Of a stretch of DNA of 64,000 nucleotides, positions 4,773 through 58,014 are shown one piece after another; within the stretch, counting starts at the first letter, position 1, and every line of letters starts with the position of its first letter. The notes beneath the pieces were generated by a model. That model had not been told where the DNA came from and searched no databases. It worked only from the letters and a program-made list of their open reading frames with translations. Source of the DNA: a virus; the IMG/VR virus record IMGVR_UViG_3300021425_002093, positions 79,935-143,934 of that record. One strand, written 5' to 3'. Position numbers and translations under genes: made by a program.

Positions 4773-5384
4773 TCATATTCTGGCGATATACGAGTTACGC
4801 TTTAAGTTATCTTTCAGCTTTTTACCCGTAGATCCTGCTGTTTGATGCGAATTTAATTGCTCATCCCAAACTTGATCTGCGGCAGCATTTGCAATGTTCG
4901 TAATATCCTGATCTGTCAAACTCACACCAACAGCTTCTACAGTAATTAAATCAACGATATTCGATCTTACAAGCGAAACAGAAACACCTTCCGCAAAGTA
5001 AAACGGAGTCTGACCCGCTTCTCGTGTATATAAGTTTCCTTCAATCGTCAATGTATATGATGACTTTGAAGCAAAGGGCTGTATCCTCCATCCATTCTCA
5101 AGAAAGTATGTGACACCAAGATCTCTATCTTCAGTAATCGGGTCACCACCAACAGCAGTAAATGCTTTATCCCAAACTCTAGCATCGGGTGCTTCCGTCG
5201 ATGCAATATTCCATTCTTTCCAAGCGGAATACAAATCCGTCTTTACGTCTAACGTTGTCACTCCTTCATCTACAAATATCGTTCTTGTTGGCCCATCGAA
5301 TGCAACCTTTTGATTTGGGTATCCACCCTCATCAGCAGGAAGCCAATTCCATCGAGTCCCATAAAACTGATGAATCGAAGGCAT
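4773..5384 (-). CDS. Hypothetical structural protein of the portal-linked cassette
   Basis: ORF track starts at 5405, but the ATG at 5384 overlaps the upstream stop (TAATG), giving about 203 aa. Motifs DLYSAWKEW, AF..VGGDP, FLENGWRI. Confidence 0.75.
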   Translation of the reverse strand: MPSIHQFYGTRWNWLPADEGGYPNQKVAFDGPTRTIFVDEGVTTLDVKTDLYSAWKEWNIASTEAPDARVWDKAFTAVGGDPITEDRDLGVTYFLENGWRIQPFASKSSYTLTIEGNLYTREAGQTPFYFAEGVSVSLVRSNIVDLITVEAVGVSLTDQDITNIANAAADQVWDEQLNSHQTAGSTGKKLKDNLKRNSYIARI

Positions 5385-8071
5385 TACTGAAGTATCTCTT
5401 TCCAAGTAATGCTAAACATAATTCTAGGATCTTGCATATCCTTAATTTGCTCGTGTGCAAAGAAAGTCCAAGTCGAGCGAGATCCTGTAAATCCATGAAT
5501 AACAGGATTCACTGACGCAGGATCGAAAGCAAAATCAGTTGTATCCACAGGAATCGTAAGCAATCGATCTTGATACAAATACGCTTTCGTCAAGTTAACA
5601 ATCTTAATGAAAACAGTTCTTGGGAATGGATTTGCAATACCAGTAGAAGAGATACTATGACAATGCAATGCGCCATCTGCGGTATTTTCATTCAATGGGA
5701 ATGTTGCTGTTTGTGGTTCTCTTAACAGCCAACGATCACTTGTTTCTGGTCTACATTCAGCATCAGTCGGATCAATCGTAACGACTGGTGGTCGAGTCAT
5801 CGTAAACGTTTCAGCGCCAGAGAACGTTCCGGTTGTTGCTGAACTTAATGTGACTTGAGTTCCACTATCCACTGAACGAATTACAGTGTTTGCGGGAATG
5901 TTTGTTCCGCTGATCGCACCACCTTCGATTAACTTAATGTGCGTCAGTGTAGTCGCCGCAGGAATTGCCTTGTTCTGAATTGGCTTAGTTAGCGTCAACA
6001 CGCTTCCATTGATATCAAGAATGTTTGTTCCGTCAGATGTCAATGGAGTATTATTTGAATCAAGAACGGTTACTGATCCACCGATAACAAATCCAGTTGC
6101 GTCTGCTACTTCAATTGTAGTAGAATATATTGCGGTTGTTCCGACTGTCGTAGTTGTCGCAGTCTGATCGTCAAGTAAAAGCGTAGTGCTATTACCTACA
6201 GCATCAACAGCCGCTCCCACTCCTGTCGTTTCAATTGAATTGTCGATATCAGAAATAACTTGTTCTGCTACACCACCATCATCGGGTCTATTTTTCCAAG
6301 CACCGTTTTGTAGATTAATATAGCGATCTGTGAGAATATCTGTAAATTGCCCATTGAACATATCTTCAAATTCGATGTTCTTTGTATTTCCCAATAAGTT
6401 TGTGTCTTCGAATGAAGTACCAGCAGTTGAAATTTGAAAGTTAGTGCCTGGGATGTCTTGAAAATCGTGGCCGCTATGAACGCAATCTCTACCTATTCGG
6501 AAGTGTACAATTGCGTCACGATTTGCTCCCGCAGAAATCTCTCCCTCAGTATCCACATTATTATCATATGCATATGCAGTGATCTTTGTAGGAACAAAAA
6601 GACTATGATCTACTGAACCCGAAGCAAGCAATTCTTTTGGAGATAGAGTAAACAATGGTCTGAATCCAGCACCATCTACAGCCAAGTGCCCAGATGTGTA
6701 AACTTTTGGACGACCTAGTGACTGTAAATCGATATCTGTTTCCGTCCATACAGATGAACTCCAACTTCTCATGTAGACGTAGTTAGCATCTTCTGGTCTC
6801 GACGAAGTTAAGCCCAAACGAACAAGGTCTGAAGGAAGCGGCCCAAAGTTACCGTCTGTTCCCGACCCATCTCCATAAACAGCATGATTTTGCATTTCGC
6901 TGTCGCTGTAGTAGTACAGTTGTTGACAAGCCGGAAGTGATGCTGTTGCACTTAATGATTCTGTGTTGCGATTACCGTGGAAGTATTCATGAATAACGAG
7001 ACGTTGACCATCATTAAATGTGCCAAATCTTACTCGACCTGCGCCATGCCACTGAATATCAAGCCAGAAGATATTGTCCTTTGATAAGTCGAAGTCCATC
7101 TGACTACGATTGCTCAATGTTCTGGAGCCGTTAATTAAGTCGCCATTGAAGTTATCGAATCCGTCCGATGTATCCGATGATGCTAAAATATAATTCTTAA
7201 CAGATCCAGATACACTTGATCTTCTTACGAGATAAAGGACACCCGTTGGGCCGACACGAAACATAAATCCATTGTCTGCGTCAAAAAGTCCAAAATTTCT
7301 TTCCGTACCTGAATTAGTTGCAGGCAATGCACTTACTTTGCCAGTATCACTAAACAACATTGTTCCCATGAACAAATGACCAGAGCCGGGTATATAGTGA
7401 TGATAGGTCTTGCTTGAAGCCGCCGCAAAGTCTTGTTGTTCTTTTACTCTTGGCTCAATGTACTTTCCAGTATCACTAAAAAAGACATCTGCTTCTCGTT
7501 TTGCCCTTGCGCCTGTATTAAGATATGTCAACGAAAAGTTTTCTAAGAGTTCGTCAATATTAGAGTAAACATACTCACCTAAGTGAGTTGCGCCTGTTGT
7601 GCGAAGTTTACCGAACGCATCGAGAGTTGGGCGACCGTCCGCTAGTGTTACGAGTGCTGATCCATATGGATCAATGTCGAGCCCATATTCGGGATTGTCA
7701 TATCCCATGATATTTTGTGCTGGAATATAGACATCGTAAAATCGAACAACTTCACCCACAATTCGAGTAGCACCGCCATCGTCGGGATCGACGATTGTTT
7801 GACCAACGCTAGGCTCGTTATTCTCAAATTTATTTGCTTTTGAGTAGTGAACAGCAAGAACGCCAGTACCGTCACCTTTATCATAAACACCGTGAAGATG
7901 CACCATCCCAAATCCTGTGACAGTGTACATTGAGCCGATCTTCCAGTTGTATCCAATGCTATTTCCGCCAGTGTTCGTTCCGAACTCAATCTCGGCAGTG
8001 TGGATCATGTATACACGATCACCAGTACTCTCTGGTGGAATTCTAGTAAATCTTTTATCTCCGAGCGCCAT
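5384..8071 (-). CDS. Large putative virion protein with a lectin/concanavalin-like beta-sandwich core and inserted small beta domains
   Basis: 895 aa; DAFGKLR, HYIPG, FGLFDADNGFMF, DLSKDNIFWLDIQWHGAGRVRFG. The fold call is an inference. Confidence 0.7.
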   Translation of the reverse strand: MALGDKRFTRIPPESTGDRVYMIHTAEIEFGTNTGGNSIGYNWKIGSMYTVTGFGMVHLHGVYDKGDGTGVLAVHYSKANKFENNEPSVGQTIVDPDDGGATRIVGEVVRFYDVYIPAQNIMGYDNPEYGLDIDPYGSALVTLADGRPTLDAFGKLRTTGATHLGEYVYSNIDELLENFSLTYLNTGARAKREADVFFSDTGKYIEPRVKEQQDFAAASSKTYHHYIPGSGHLFMGTMLFSDTGKVSALPATNSGTERNFGLFDADNGFMFRVGPTGVLYLVRRSSVSGSVKNYILASSDTSDGFDNFNGDLINGSRTLSNRSQMDFDLSKDNIFWLDIQWHGAGRVRFGTFNDGQRLVIHEYFHGNRNTESLSATASLPACQQLYYYSDSEMQNHAVYGDGSGTDGNFGPLPSDLVRLGLTSSRPEDANYVYMRSWSSSVWTETDIDLQSLGRPKVYTSGHLAVDGAGFRPLFTLSPKELLASGSVDHSLFVPTKITAYAYDNNVDTEGEISAGANRDAIVHFRIGRDCVHSGHDFQDIPGTNFQISTAGTSFEDTNLLGNTKNIEFEDMFNGQFTDILTDRYINLQNGAWKNRPDDGGVAEQVISDIDNSIETTGVGAAVDAVGNSTTLLLDDQTATTTTVGTTAIYSTTIEVADATGFVIGGSVTVLDSNNTPLTSDGTNILDINGSVLTLTKPIQNKAIPAATTLTHIKLIEGGAISGTNIPANTVIRSVDSGTQVTLSSATTGTFSGAETFTMTRPPVVTIDPTDAECRPETSDRWLLREPQTATFPLNENTADGALHCHSISSTGIANPFPRTVFIKIVNLTKAYLYQDRLLTIPVDTTDFAFDPASVNPVIHGFTGSRSTWTFFAHEQIKDMQDPRIMFSITWKEILQ

Positions 8072-47642: not shown

Positions 47643-49844
47643 TTATCCTTCTATCGCTAATATGTAGGGCGTCAACACAGCAAAAAGTGATCTATCGAAG
47701 GTCACACCCTCAATAATACCTGCGTCCCTGTTAATTAAAAGTTCTGATCCAATTCTGAAATCACCTTTGTGATCCGTACTTGTAAAGTACACTTGTCCAG
47801 CATTGTTATCGTCAAATACAATTTCGTTCGCTTGAATTGGAATCGCACCTGTTCTCGGAGTATTATAGAATACTTCAGTGCCTGTTCCTATATATTCAAA
47901 TGTAATCGAGCTAGCAACAATCAGACTTCTTTGGAAAAACTCCATTGTAGTCGAATCAACAATATCCTGATCCAAAGACTCAAGAAGCGTGAGTGTTGCT
48001 GTATCACCATCTACTATAATTGTTGTAATTGTCGAAATGCTCGTTGTCACAATAGATTGTGTTGCGGGATCAATCGCTAATGCATTGATTTGATCTCGAA
48101 GATAGTTAATAGCGTCAACAGTTTCAGCTTCTTGCTCATTTACTACAACCGATGCGTTTGCTCTCTGATACGATGCACCAGCAAGCGTAGAGTTATAATC
48201 TGTACCAAGCGCAAGATCTCGTATTACCGCATCAACAATCAAACCAACGTCTCGACTACACTTTGCTTCATCGTAATCAAGTGCTGGATATGTTGTGTTA
48301 ATATATGTAATCACGTCCGCTTGAAGTGTTGCTTTTGCCGCTAAGATTGTGTTATAATCTGTCAAATCTACACCAGTAAAGTCTGGATCGACAACGGCAG
48401 GAAGATTGTCAAGATTGCCTGCTGTAATTACATCGATAATAATATCAACTAAGGCTTCAACACGATTAGTCTCTGTCTGACTAGCGGCTGCAGCATCTGT
48501 GTTCTGACCCATTGCTAGTTCTTGAACGATTTGTCCAAGCAAAGTTTTCAAATATTCATATGAGTTAATTGTTGCAGTAACTTGATCTGCGGGTAACTGA
48601 CTAACCGCTCCAACAAAGTATGCCTGAGCAACAGAAAGGGTTGCTGTATTACCGCCATACAAAATATCATGAGTAAGTGCATCAACGATGTAATGAATAT
48701 CTCTCTTACACTTACCGATGTTATACTCGATTTCCGGATAGTTTTCTTCAATGTATCTGACAGTCTTTTCTGACGCAAATGTTCTATTGTTTTGAAGTTG
48801 CTGAGACGCATTTAATTCATTTACAGTAGAACCTGGTGCCGCAGGATATACAATGTTTTCAATTTCTTCTGTAACAAAAAGACCCGATGTGTTTTCTACT
48901 GTGTGATACTTGTCAATCCCCGCAAACTTAATAGCATCTCCGTATTTGGGTCGCTCTGTAACATCTTTTAACTCAATCACACTCGTTGTTGCTCTAGCCA
49001 GTCCAGACGAAGTGGCTGTATATATGACACCACTCGTACCTGTTGCTCTCAACCCGTAAGTACCGAATGAGCAGTTTGAGTTTGTTAGAGAGCAGAATCC
49101 ACCGTTTTCCGCTAGAATCCCATCTTCGCACGAAATCGTAAACTGAGATACAAGCTGAGCATATCCACGATTCAGAAGATGAACGCCAATTCCGCCAAAG
49201 TTGATATTAGTGTATGCATCAGCAACCATTGAACGAAGACCGGAACAGTGATTGCCGTCGATTCTCATTCCTGTTCCGGTAGTTGTAATTGAACTACAGT
49301 TTTGAACATAAGGAGATGTTCGAATCTCGCCTGCTGATCCGTCTGGATTAAACGATACAGCCGCTGAAGGAGACACATAGTCTCTAAACGTTACACCGGT
49401 GAAGTGAGATCCGTTATTTACATAAAAGAGATCGTTCGTTGACACTGAAGGACGAATATTTGTTGTGCGAAGATTGTCTCCGACAATCGCAACTCTTTCT
49501 GGGATGTTTACACCACCTGCGCTATTGTCTAGAACATGATCTCCGCTCTTTAGAAAAATAGTTGTGCCTGGTTGGGCAACTGAGAGTGCTTGGTTAATTG
49601 TTGCGAAAGCTTCTGCAAGAGTCGTTCCATTGTTATCCGTATCGCTTCCAGTTTTCGAGACGTATAAGACATTATCAGTTCTCTCCGCTAAGCCTACTTC
49701 TCTGACGCTAATAGTTCCATCTTTATCACGAGTAAAGTACATCTTGCCATCATGAGTGTTGATAGCAATTTCACCAGTATCAATCTGTGTTGTTGTTGGA
49801 ACCCTTCCAGCAATGTCGCTTCTTTTGTGTCTTATTATTGACAT
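47643..49844 (-). CDS. Fibre/spike protein: fibre-type N-terminus, pectin-lyase-like beta-helix, two inserted helical KCxRD domains
   Basis: 733 aa; HKRS..AGRVPT.....GEIAIN..DGK.Y; LYVSKTGSD...G.T...AFATI..AL; GDNLR; SPYVQNCSS; KCKRDIHYIVDA and KCSRDVGLIVDA. Confidence 0.8.
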   Translation of the reverse strand: MSIIRHKRSDIAGRVPTTTQIDTGEIAINTHDGKMYFTRDKDGTISVREVGLAERTDNVLYVSKTGSDTDNNGTTLAEAFATINQALSVAQPGTTIFLKSGDHVLDNSAGGVNIPERVAIVGDNLRTTNIRPSVSTNDLFYVNNGSHFTGVTFRDYVSPSAAVSFNPDGSAGEIRTSPYVQNCSSITTTGTGMRIDGNHCSGLRSMVADAYTNINFGGIGVHLLNRGYAQLVSQFTISCEDGILAENGGFCSLTNSNCSFGTYGLRATGTSGVIYTATSSGLARATTSVIELKDVTERPKYGDAIKFAGIDKYHTVENTSGLFVTEEIENIVYPAAPGSTVNELNASQQLQNNRTFASEKTVRYIEENYPEIEYNIGKCKRDIHYIVDALTHDILYGGNTATLSVAQAYFVGAVSQLPADQVTATINSYEYLKTLLGQIVQELAMGQNTDAAAASQTETNRVEALVDIIIDVITAGNLDNLPAVVDPDFTGVDLTDYNTILAAKATLQADVITYINTTYPALDYDEAKCSRDVGLIVDAVIRDLALGTDYNSTLAGASYQRANASVVVNEQEAETVDAINYLRDQINALAIDPATQSIVTTSISTITTIIVDGDTATLTLLESLDQDIVDSTTMEFFQRSLIVASSITFEYIGTGTEVFYNTPRTGAIPIQANEIVFDDNNAGQVYFTSTDHKGDFRIGSELLINRDAGIIEGVTFDRSLFAVLTPYILAIEG

Positions 49845-50620: not shown

Positions 50621-50628
50621 TATTTATA
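50621..50628 (-). promoter_or_regulatory. Late promoter TATAAATA overlapping the 135-aa stop codon
   Basis: GTA TAA ATA forms the exact consensus. Confidence 0.75.
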
Positions 50629-55305: not shown

Positions 55306-58014
55306 TTACGGTGATAACTGAATAGACCAGCCGACTGATCTTAAGAAACTTAGATTGGGTCCAGCAGACTGATCACCAAGAATCGCTGATTCCGTCAGAC
55401 CATTTTGGTTAATCAGATTAACTGAAACTCCCCCTCTCGGGTTCGCATTATAATTAGCCGCAAGATCATTGATAATGTTTACACCGTCAGATGCAGTCAA
55501 GTTATTGTTACTGAAGTCGATTGTTTGGATAATCAAGTTAGATGCAATTGCTCCGGCAGTATATCCAGTAAATTCATTTTGGTTTAGATAAAGACGTAAT
55601 AGTCTAGGACACTGATCGTATGTAGGAATAATAGCGCCTGTAGTAACACCAGTTTTCGATCCGTTCCCACCAATATCGTTTTGCTGTAAGTAAACATATC
55701 GAATATTAGTTCCACTAAATGCTGGAAGTGATGTGAATCTATTTCCAGCCAAGAATAGATAGTATAATCCGTTCGAATCAAAGGCTGGACACGCCCCAGT
55801 AAACTTGTTGTAATCCGCTCTTAGATAGTACAGTCTAAAGTTTGCGGCAAAAGAAGGCAGCGGTGCACTAGGAACATCATTCAACCTAGTACCAAACGAT
55901 GTGTTACGAATATAGATAACTCTCAGATTAGTGTTAGTGCTTAAGTCTGGAAGATCGCCACCAATGTTAATGTTATTATAGCAGTAAAGATATCCGAAGT
56001 TGGGTGTTTTTTCAAAAATAGTTCCGGCATCAGGTGCGCCAGTATTTACACTGAAAAAATCATCTCTTGCAAGATCTGGATTCGGATAGCTTGGGTTTCC
56101 GTGTAGACTTCCTGAGACTAAGAATACTCCCATGTTAGGAGTACCCACGAAAGAGTCGGAGCTAAATCTACCATACATTCTAGACCATCTAGTATCAAAT
56201 CGATAAAGTCTAGGTAGATTAGAGAATGTATTTTCTATATCGTCTTCGCAGTCTGTTGCATAGAAATTCATATAGTATAAGTTAGTGCAACCTTGAATTT
56301 TAGTATTCAATGTGCGTCCAGCGCCTTGTGCTTCTCCCGCTGGTTGCTGACCCAGCCCAACAGTAGCTACTGATTCCGAATCACTAAAAGTGGGCAAACC
56401 TCTGGAGTATCTGTGCCAATAATAAAAAATAGAGGTATTGCTATTGAAGTTAACAATGTTATGACTATTACTATATGAGTAGAAATAATCAATAGTTGGA
56501 GATGCAATTGTCAACGCTTTTTGTATAGGCGAAGCTGACGCATTAGGAACGTCTGCGTTGTTGTTGTCTCTCGCAGTTTCTCTTCTTACAATATCGCATA
56601 AAGTAATATCAAGTCTACTCAATGTAGTAGAATCGCATACTCCGTCTGCAAGTCTAGAATAAGGCTGTCTTGTAACATTATAGCTTACGATTCCTGGGTG
56701 AACTCTTGGCGAAGTGCCGTTTTTAGGCTCCGCAGCGTTAGCGAGATCGGTATCCGTCGAGCCAGTCATCGCACGAGCGGCATCACGAGTATAAAAAGTA
56801 TCCATTGATATCGTTGTTAAATTGGTCAGATAACGGAGATCAATTACTTCACTATCTGAAAACGTACCATTCATCGTTAATGACGTAAGAGTAGTAGGAA
56901 GATATTGTAGTTGCACATTTGCTGTAACTTGATCGCCGTTAGAATCTAGCGCTCTACTCATATTATTGCCTGTGAGTATAAGCGTTTGAAGATTTGGCGC
57001 AAGAGCAACGTTAGTTGTAATAGATCCGTAAGCGCCTGTACCCTGACCGAACTTAGGCATCTCAAAAAAATCGTTTAGTCTGATATCTAAGTATTCTAAG
57101 TTACTGATACTTACACTAGGCCAGTCGCTCAAATTTACACCTGTAATGTCAAGACGTAAAATTCTATCCGGCGGATAAAAGAACTCAATCTTTCTTGCTT
57201 TTGCGCCCGGATCTCGAAATGTATATACGCCTGGTGACGCTACAGTTCCTGTTCCGATTGGGGCTTTGATCGTACCATCACCAGAGTCGTAGCTAAATCC
57301 GTTATCTTCGTTGACAATTCTCCAAGTGGCGGGAATCGTTCCCAATCCATCAGTAAGACCTCCGCTATTCACAGCGCTACGGAAATCAGCATCTTTAAAA
57401 AACGCATCAAATTGAAGTGGAATTCCCTTCATGGCATATGCAGTTCTTTGTACAGTGCCCCCTCCGGCCGCTGTAAACTTCAAAGCAATTTCATGTGTAG
57501 CAACTTCCGCTCTGAAAGTTTTTTGAATGGGCGCTTGTGTAAGCCTAAAGCTACCTAGTTCTATCTTGTCTCCAGTAACTAGTAGCTCGCCACCGTAGAA
57601 TATCTTACCGGGCTCAGTTGATGACCAAGAAGAAATTCTCGATGTGGAAATGTCAGCAGACTTTTGTACGGGATTTAAAATATCGGAAAGATCAAGATAG
57701 TTATACTTAATCGCAGACCCAGACAACTTGTTGTCGATTGTCAAGTTAAAGTCGAACGGGTTTCTGAAATCTTGCAGAGACTCTAATCGTCCACCCACCT
57801 CTTTTGCTGATTCGGCGAGAGACACAAATTCTTTACGCTGATCGTCCTGTAGACCCGCTAGAAGACGAAGCTCCACGCCACTTACAACATCGCTAATCCC
57901 TCGAATAGCATCGAGATCTTGGATATTGATTCCCAAATTTTGTAAAGCCTCGTCTTTATCATCGACATCATTGAGGAATCGATTAACATTTAGTCCACGA
58001 AAAATTGTAGCCAT
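55306..58014 (-). CDS. Leucine-rich-repeat protein
   Basis: 902 aa; LxxLxLxxNxL/F repeats (NLEYLDIRLNDF, NLQTLILTGNNM, RLYYLRADYNKFTG, GLYYLFLAGNRF, RLLRLYLNQNEFTG, IQTIDFSNNNL). Confidence 0.85.
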   Translation of the reverse strand: MATIFRGLNVNRFLNDVDDKDEALQNLGINIQDLDAIRGISDVVSGVELRLLAGLQDDQRKEFVSLAESAKEVGGRLESLQDFRNPFDFNLTIDNKLSGSAIKYNYLDLSDILNPVQKSADISTSRISSWSSTEPGKIFYGGELLVTGDKIELGSFRLTQAPIQKTFRAEVATHEIALKFTAAGGGTVQRTAYAMKGIPLQFDAFFKDADFRSAVNSGGLTDGLGTIPATWRIVNEDNGFSYDSGDGTIKAPIGTGTVASPGVYTFRDPGAKARKIEFFYPPDRILRLDITGVNLSDWPSVSISNLEYLDIRLNDFFEMPKFGQGTGAYGSITTNVALAPNLQTLILTGNNMSRALDSNGDQVTANVQLQYLPTTLTSLTMNGTFSDSEVIDLRYLTNLTTISMDTFYTRDAARAMTGSTDTDLANAAEPKNGTSPRVHPGIVSYNVTRQPYSRLADGVCDSTTLSRLDITLCDIVRRETARDNNNADVPNASASPIQKALTIASPTIDYFYSYSNSHNIVNFNSNTSIFYYWHRYSRGLPTFSDSESVATVGLGQQPAGEAQGAGRTLNTKIQGCTNLYYMNFYATDCEDDIENTFSNLPRLYRFDTRWSRMYGRFSSDSFVGTPNMGVFLVSGSLHGNPSYPNPDLARDDFFSVNTGAPDAGTIFEKTPNFGYLYCYNNINIGGDLPDLSTNTNLRVIYIRNTSFGTRLNDVPSAPLPSFAANFRLYYLRADYNKFTGACPAFDSNGLYYLFLAGNRFTSLPAFSGTNIRYVYLQQNDIGGNGSKTGVTTGAIIPTYDQCPRLLRLYLNQNEFTGYTAGAIASNLIIQTIDFSNNNLTASDGVNIINDLAANYNANPRGGVSVNLINQNGLTESAILGDQSAGPNLSFLRSVGWSIQLSP

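Follow-up and report, generated by a model that had tools for sequence, protein, structure and literature searches.

The stretch of viral DNA analysed here (64,000 nucleotides, hereafter the window; positions 79,935 to 143,934 of IMG/VR record IMGVR_UViG_3300021425_002093) encodes on its minus strand a tail fibre or tailspike protein of 733 residues (P0001; 47643..49844), identified from the list of open reading frames (ORFs) and their translations together with matches to PHROG families. Inside this protein stand two helical units that are homologous to phycobiliproteins, the light-harvesting globins of cyanobacteria, and each unit keeps a Cys-x-Arg-Asp (CXRD) motif. A sequence-only reading of the window had already pointed to the region 48005-48820, corresponding to residues 342-614, as a pair of phycobiliprotein-like domains on the virion that may bind a bilin. 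What is new here is that the phage bearing these units, a T4-like marine phage, is not a classical cyanophage, and that it has a heme oxygenase and bilin reductase cassette of its own.

Architecture of the fibre protein

P0001 matches the tail-fibre families phrog_17885 (2.8e-79) and phrog_5342 (1.4e-60). Its sequence is found unchanged on eight public contigs, and megablast matched the gene to none of 50,697 phage records. The full-length AlphaFold model, with an overall predicted local distance difference test score (pLDDT) of 80, resolves the protein into five parts. Residues 1-55 (49680..49844, minus strand, as are all the parts that follow) form a beta domain, modelled as strands at a pLDDT of about 50-60, that resembles an Mtd_N attachment module; Pfam places PF18454 (Mtd_N) at residues 5-45 in homologues of P0001. 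A right-handed beta-helix occupies residues 59-320 (48885..49670) at pLDDT >90. Its Foldseek matches include pectin methylesterase, rhamnogalacturonan lyase, PL6 alginate lyases and phage tail fibres, and a weak match to the Pel9A-like beta-helix family PF22842 is recorded for P0001 among precomputed annotations.

The two globin-like units follow. Unit 1 spans residues 345-490 (48375..48812), as delimited by the jackhmmer envelope, AlphaFold and VIA-align, and unit 2 spans residues 495-627 (47964..48362; jackhmmer envelope of 117.5 bits). In the full-length model their helical parts cover residues 341-475 and 495-612, with the same order of helices in both. The helical block that had been proposed to interrupt a beta-rich protein is therefore visible in the model itself. 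The protein ends in a second beta domain, residues 629-733 (47646..47960), recognized from conservation among homologues, PHROG and the model, where beta strands run from 615 to 733 at a pLDDT of 50-80. This domain matches the C-terminus of phrog_3442. It stands at the very end of almost every one of the 111 homologues, irrespective of the order of the other modules. Because the beta-helix stands before the units in some relatives and after them in others, we conclude that the modules have been shuffled.

The placement of P0001 on the virion, which the sequence-only reading had assumed, is well supported by the PHROG tail-fibre families, by Mtd_N on homologues, by the beta-helix and by a T4-type late promoter. 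The promoter, TATAAATA, lies on the minus strand at 50621..50628, where it heads an ORF of 233 residues and the fibre gene. From it to the start of that ORF (50591) is a distance of about 30 nt, and a gap of 45 nt separates the ORF from the fibre gene downstream.

Globin units homologous to phycobiliproteins

The two units of P0001 are related to each other (29% identity in an ungapped alignment of 72 residues, E 6e-11). Neither P0001 nor the two-unit region, searched as single sequences against Pfam and the PDB, returned anything significant. Five homologues (P0037, P0045, P0071, P0077 and P0110) do pass the cut-off of 22.2 bits for the phycobiliprotein family PF00502, at 25.5-37.9 bits and with a best E of 2e-9, P0071 and P0077 reaching 37-38 bits. 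When the PDB was searched with a profile made from 75 diverse units (alignment A1), phycocyanin alpha chains were matched at E 0.02-0.9; phycocyanins account for four of the six matches, and the viral Cys falls on Cys84. Aligned by hhalign to 40 real CpcA and CpcB sequences from named cyanobacterial genomes, the same profile gave a probability of 93% and E 3.5e-7 over 93 columns; against CpcA alone the probability was 93.7, with E 2e-7 and a score of 46.5. Given that 20 column-shuffled controls scored at most 17.7, with probabilities no higher than 1.3, the resemblance is well above chance.

Structure prediction gives the same answer. AlphaFold models unit 1 with a pLDDT of 98 and a predicted template modelling score of 0.91, and the best of 48,161 chains compared with it by VIA-align is an allophycocyanin (8or7_A; Z 14.3, root-mean-square deviation (rmsd) 1.9 A over 112 residues, chain residues 39-159). 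The top eight chains are all allophycocyanin, phycoerythrin or the bilin domain of ApcE (Z 11.8-14.3, rmsd 1.9-2.8 A), with heme globin sensors and photocobilins ranking next at Z 10-11, and the top twelve Foldseek rows are without exception phycoerythrins or cryptophyte phycobiliproteins. A globin-like predicted fold, which had been named as a check on the original proposal, is thus what the model and both fold searches returned. Taken together, Pfam matches of homologues, the profile search of the PDB, hhalign against CpcA and CpcB, and AlphaFold with fold searching confirm that the units are truly homologous to phycobiliproteins.

The homology does not extend to a complete subunit. The unit model (residues 1-130) aligns to chain residues of about 39-160, and only some 34 residues precede the Cys, versus 83 in phycocyanin; the unit therefore corresponds to the globin core without the X/Y helices. 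In true phycobiliproteins these helices are part of the pocket and of the interface, and the assembly of the alpha-beta monomer, and of the (alpha-beta)3 ring, depends on them. The units are best read as truncated globins, retaining helices B, E, F', F, G and H but no X/Y hairpin, of the clade that comprises phycobiliproteins and BBAGs, which are non-antenna bilin-binding globins of heterotrophic bacteria, some of them with CXRD (Rockwell et al. 2023, PMC10151467). The earlier description of the units as phycobiliprotein homologues accordingly stands for ancestry and globin fold, and fails where it would imply full subunits.

The motif reads Cys379-Lys-Arg381-Asp382 (KCKRD) in unit 1, at 48699..48710 on the minus strand with the Cys codon at 48708-48710, and Cys529-Ser-Arg531-Asp532 (KCSRD) in unit 2, at 48249..48260 on the same strand with the Cys codon at 48258-48260. 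The spacing of exactly 150 residues between the cysteines was correctly observed from the sequence. Both HMMER and hhalign alignments place the unit Cys in register with Cys84-x-Arg86-Asp87 of phycocyanin. The phycocyanin-alpha string given for this comparison in the sequence-only reading agrees with real CpcA from Thermosynechococcus (L081), against which the count of nine matches among 22 positions of unit 1 is upheld. CXRD is a bilin-attachment motif, in which the Cys forms a thioether to ring A and the Arg and Asp hydrogen-bond to the chromophore (Rockwell et al. 2023, PMC10151467).

Of 982 distinct units for which aligned residues are available, 879 (89.5%) keep the triad whole, with retention of 92% for Cys, 92% for Arg and 96% for Asp, and exactly one Cys is present in 769 of 1006 units. 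The triad is degenerate in the other 103 (about 10%; P0002-P0111 and loci L001-L080). Units that lack the Cys mostly have Tyr, Trp or Phe in its place and have lost the Arg as well (YED, WAY, YTD, FGY and similar). This joint loss with aromatic replacement looks like the filling in of a ligand pocket, unlike the behaviour of independent structural residues. Judged from the aligned sequences, the CXRD site is under selection. Some positions are invariant among the units but missing from phycobiliproteins, namely Asp388, Asp393, Gly-Gly-Asn 397-399, Tyr409 and Thr425.

The unit family is large. An HMMER scan of 1.84 billion representatives found 1,672 clusters with an E of at most 1e-3, 734 of them with an E of at most 1e-30, and the proteins concerned reach 6,382 residues and contain from 2 to about 40 units each. 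Among cultured phages, tblastn found units only in myoviruses of Synechococcus and Prochlorococcus; a profile search assigns nine units to S-PM2, spread over two giant proteins, and structural matches in BFVD include tail proteins of S-WAM2, S-H9-1, S-CAM1 and S-PM2. In cyanobacteria, a profile search of five named genomes and 301 sampled ones gave only two marginal matches, of 19-20 bits, and no unit of the viral type. The presence of units in phages and their absence from the sampled cyanobacterial genomes indicate that the family is phage-borne and old, not a recent capture from a host. Most contigs with the units nearest to those of P0001 (G001-G037; L001-L079) measure 40-137 kb at an estimated completeness of 11-40%, so that jumbo genomes of about 350 kb are implied. 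Our literature searches turned up no paper describing phycobiliprotein-like domains in phage structural proteins.

In summary form, the units share with phycobiliproteins (PF00502: CpcA/B, ApcA/B, CpeA/B and ApcE) the globin-like fold, at Z 12-14 and an rmsd of about 2 A over 108-125 residues, and the register of the bilin site, with profile-level homology strongest to phycocyanin alpha. They differ in lacking the helices through which alpha and beta chains pair, in an identity to real phycobiliproteins of only 12-17% in structural alignments, in their own invariant residues, in being repeated in tandem within giant beta-rich virion proteins, and in occurring in phages and not in the cyanobacterial genomes searched. 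The giant tail fibres of T4-like cyanophages (S-PM2 p091, T4-like GC 830) contain the same unit family as P0001. Those phages, however, infect hosts with phycobilisomes and carry psbA, whereas P0001 is small, has two units fused to a beta-helix and belongs to a phage in which no photosynthesis genes were found.

The phage and its bilin cassette

Within the 144-kb record, psbA, psbD, hli, cpeT, heme oxygenase and bilin reductase were all not found, nor were there matches to PF00502, PF05996, PF01126, PF06206 or PF00124; as a positive control, the search for psbA and psbD picks up both genes in S-PM2. Identification of the phage as a classical cyanophage was dropped on the failure to find psbA, psbD, hli or cpeT. 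Its gp41 helicase is at most 57-61% identical to that of any isolate, a Stenotrophomonas phage coming first and cyanophages next.

The bilin genes lie just outside the IMG/VR record, which breaks off shortly before reaching them. ENA contig k141_1016285 (ERZ27251128; 175,969 bp) is 99.91% identical to the record over the record's first 15,067 bases, so the two represent the same phage, the genome of which is covered here except for about 15 kb. About 5.5 kb beyond the record start, this contig carries a heme oxygenase gene and, overlapping it, a Fe_bilin_red gene for a protein of 233 residues (L216:18765-20004). The reductase is PcyA-like and falls under the NCBIfam equivalog cut-off. Its closest cultured relative, at 52% identity and likewise beside a heme oxygenase, is in Pelagibacter phage Mosig, and cyanophage PcyA proteins are only 22-30% identical to it. 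A heterotrophic host is suggested by the failure to find photosynthesis genes together with the likeness of the reductase to that of a pelagiphage. The fibre gene, at 127.6-129.8 kb of the record, is in the same genome as the cassette. The search for bilin genes elsewhere in the genome, which the sequence-only reading had recommended, was thus successful for heme oxygenase and reductase; no lyase gene was found, cpeT having been looked for and S/U-type and E/F-type lyases not having been searched for. The absence of cpeT fits lyase-free self-attachment, as far as gene content can suggest.

Downstream of the cassette, the contig encodes DsbA, gp32, baseplate proteins and an AOX/PTOX-family protein (L219:17419-17982). 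The only match of the latter among 50,697 phage records is in Phage C48C1, a member of Kyanoviridae listed without a host, at 62% identity, and its assignment as a cyanophage PTOX was dropped since it matches Phage C48C1 only and no cyanophage. A pyridoxal phosphate enzyme of 387 residues near the cassette region, considered as a viral AlaS, proved to be a serine hydroxymethyltransferase (543 bits; record 5123-6286, L202, outside the window). NifU-like, CobS-like AAA, peroxiredoxin and reprolysin-like proteins are also encoded close to the cassette.

Related genomes allow the units and the bilin genes to be compared. G012 (152,753 bp), chosen on its units, shares its gene order with this phage, their proteins being about 47% identical, and is essentially complete, as its two ends map to adjacent genes in this phage. 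It has eight units, all with CxRD, together with bilin reductase and heme oxygenase. Two genomes chosen on their reductase have nine units each: G044 (382 kb, complete) and G042 (251 kb, 71% complete). No psbA, hli or cpeT was found in these three genomes. Two others chosen on reductase, G059 (230 kb, complete) and Pelagibacter phage Mosig (141 kb, complete; reductase and heme oxygenase, no psbA found), have no units, and Phage C48C1 (156 kb, complete), chosen on its AOX-like gene, has neither units nor reductase.

The remainder of the window is rich in structural genes. The TATAAATA motif occurs 12 times on the minus strand (at 715, 2126, 3131, 4766, 8113, 13106, 16061, 19402, 19546, 23658, 50628 and 51409) versus twice on the plus strand, and the majority of sites lie 30-45 nt upstream of the starts of structural genes, as do T4-type late promoters. 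Between 26167 and 47307 on the minus strand, five giant ORFs of 1649, 1611, 1374, 1182 and 1209 residues succeed one another. Three of the five carry tail-fibre C-terminal modules, with Peptidase_S74 on one homologue; globin units are in none of them, and the protein of 1209 residues has no PHROG or Pfam match at all. A protein of 902 residues (55306-58014, minus strand), encoded among the fibre genes, has LRR_4/LRR_8 repeats near residues 675-841, which is unusual for a phage structural region. The called start of a neighbouring gene for 1246 residues is GTG. When the neighbouring ORFs were scanned with Pfam and PHROG for a lyase or chaperone, an LtfC-like match was the only one found.

A candidate acceptor for phage bilins

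We put at roughly one half the probability that each unit covalently binds a bilin made by the phage, giving a pigmented fibre. The role of CXRD, combined with the finding that BBAG-1/3 proteins with this motif attach bilins without lyases (PMC10151467), makes binding of a phage bilin the most likely reading. During infection, the phage heme oxygenase and reductase would turn host heme into a reduced bilin, which would be phycoerythrobilin if the reductase behaves like characterised PcyX. Cys379 or Cys529 of a unit would take up the bilin by a thioether, probably without a lyase, as in BBAG-1/3 and ApcE, and the released virion would display six bilins per trimeric fibre. There the bilin could stabilise the globin fold as a structural cofactor, respond to light and so condition adsorption, or do both. 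The bilin pathway was found in two of two genomes picked by units, and units in two of four picked by reductase. Units are thus accompanied by the pathway but the pathway is not always accompanied by units, a pattern that would be expected if the units need a bilin that the host cannot supply.

Several observations weigh against covalent bilin binding. The co-occurrence just described comes from very few complete genomes, some of which were picked on one of the two traits, and the presence of reductase without units in Mosig and G059 means that the units cannot be the sole reason for the cassette. Nor is the cassette adjacent to the fibre gene, and it has no late promoter within 120 nt. P0001 itself reaches no Pfam threshold, that of PF00502 included, and PF00502 matches only three of 75 units taken singly (E 0.01 or better). 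The X/Y helices are absent from the units. Finally, the BBAGs tested so far are photoinert (PMC10151467), which weakens the light-sensing variant in particular. That variant, in which this phage, like hundreds of its aquatic relatives with jumbo genomes of about 350-380 kb among them, has bilin-pigmented fibres that serve as a virion light sensor gating adsorption, we regard as unlikely, even if adsorption of several marine cyanomyoviruses is known to depend on light (PMC2984593).

Alternatively, the units may be apo-globin spacers, helical modules that set the length or geometry of the fibre, with CXRD kept for folding or packing and no ligand bound. This is the main competing explanation, and we consider it possible if somewhat doubtful. 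The wide range in copy number, the shuffling of modules with the beta-helix on either side of the units, the tenth of units without the triad, and the existence of phages with a reductase but no units are all what a structural spacer might show. Counter to this, packing can hardly account for a lone Cys that is conserved at about 92% on an extracellular protein, and the joint loss of Cys and Arg, with an aromatic residue in place of the Cys, resembles a pocket filled after loss of its ligand. A spacer would also leave unexplained why both complete psbA-less genomes chosen on units alone have the bilin pathway. It is quite improbable, in our estimation, that the site serves some other ligand or chemistry, such as non-covalent biliverdin or heme, a metal at Asp382/Asp388/Asp393, or an inter-chain disulfide that locks the trimer. 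BBAG-2 globins do bind biliverdin without CXRD (PMC10151467), many globins of this fold bind heme, and the units have invariant residues peculiar to them. Yet the complete CXRD triad is a specific signature of thioether-linked reduced bilins (PMC10151467), the top structural matches are globins that bind bilin and not heme, and the phage reductase acts past biliverdin.

The origin of the units bears on a further idea, that a cyanophage recently captured a host phycobiliprotein as an antenna decoy or mimic. The restriction of units, among cultured phages, to those of Synechococcus and Prochlorococcus might seem to favour this. It is largely refuted, and we think it very improbable, given the low identity to real phycobiliproteins, the lack of viral-type units in the sampled and named cyanobacterial genomes, the failure to find psbA, psbD, hli and cpeT in this phage and its relatives by a search that was positive for psbA and psbD in S-PM2, and the fact that a fibre works extracellularly and never meets a phycobilisome. 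Host mimicry, one of the roles raised by the sequence-only reading, is likewise unlikely, given the great distance between the units and the phycobiliproteins of hosts and the lack of any sign that this phage has a cyanobacterial host.

If the units do bind phage-made bilin, they have a functional parallel in the BBAGs, a likeness drawn by description and not by sequence: lyase-free attachment is what the phage units would need. BBAGs differ in being soluble, single-domain proteins clustered with heme oxygenase and FDBR genes, whereas the phage units stand in tandem within a structural protein, and the cassette lies tens of kilobases away. Heme oxygenase and bilin reductase genes have been known in phages of aquatic bacteria for two decades. 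The purpose of the hemO and pcyX/pcyA cassette in phages of non-phototrophs is described as 'still enigmatic' (Ledermann et al.; PMC11480375). As in those phages, the heme oxygenase and PcyA-like genes are overlapping or adjacent in this phage and in G012. The literature names no bilin acceptor for the cassette, whereas here a candidate acceptor is encoded in the same genome.

The tail-fibre globins with a bilin site, found in no fewer than 1,672 protein clusters and repeated as many as about 40 times in a single protein, are therefore a concrete candidate for the acceptor of phage bilin. If pigment is attached, P0001 would be the first phage virion protein to bear a chromophore, and a phage branch would be added to the history of phycobiliproteins and BBAGs. 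Such pigmented fibres could account for the light-dependent adsorption of cyanomyoviruses (PMC2984593). Were they also to sense light, the enigmatic bilin genes of non-cyanobacterial phages would gain a function. Even if pigment is not attached, it is striking that an antenna fold has been reused to build viral fibres.

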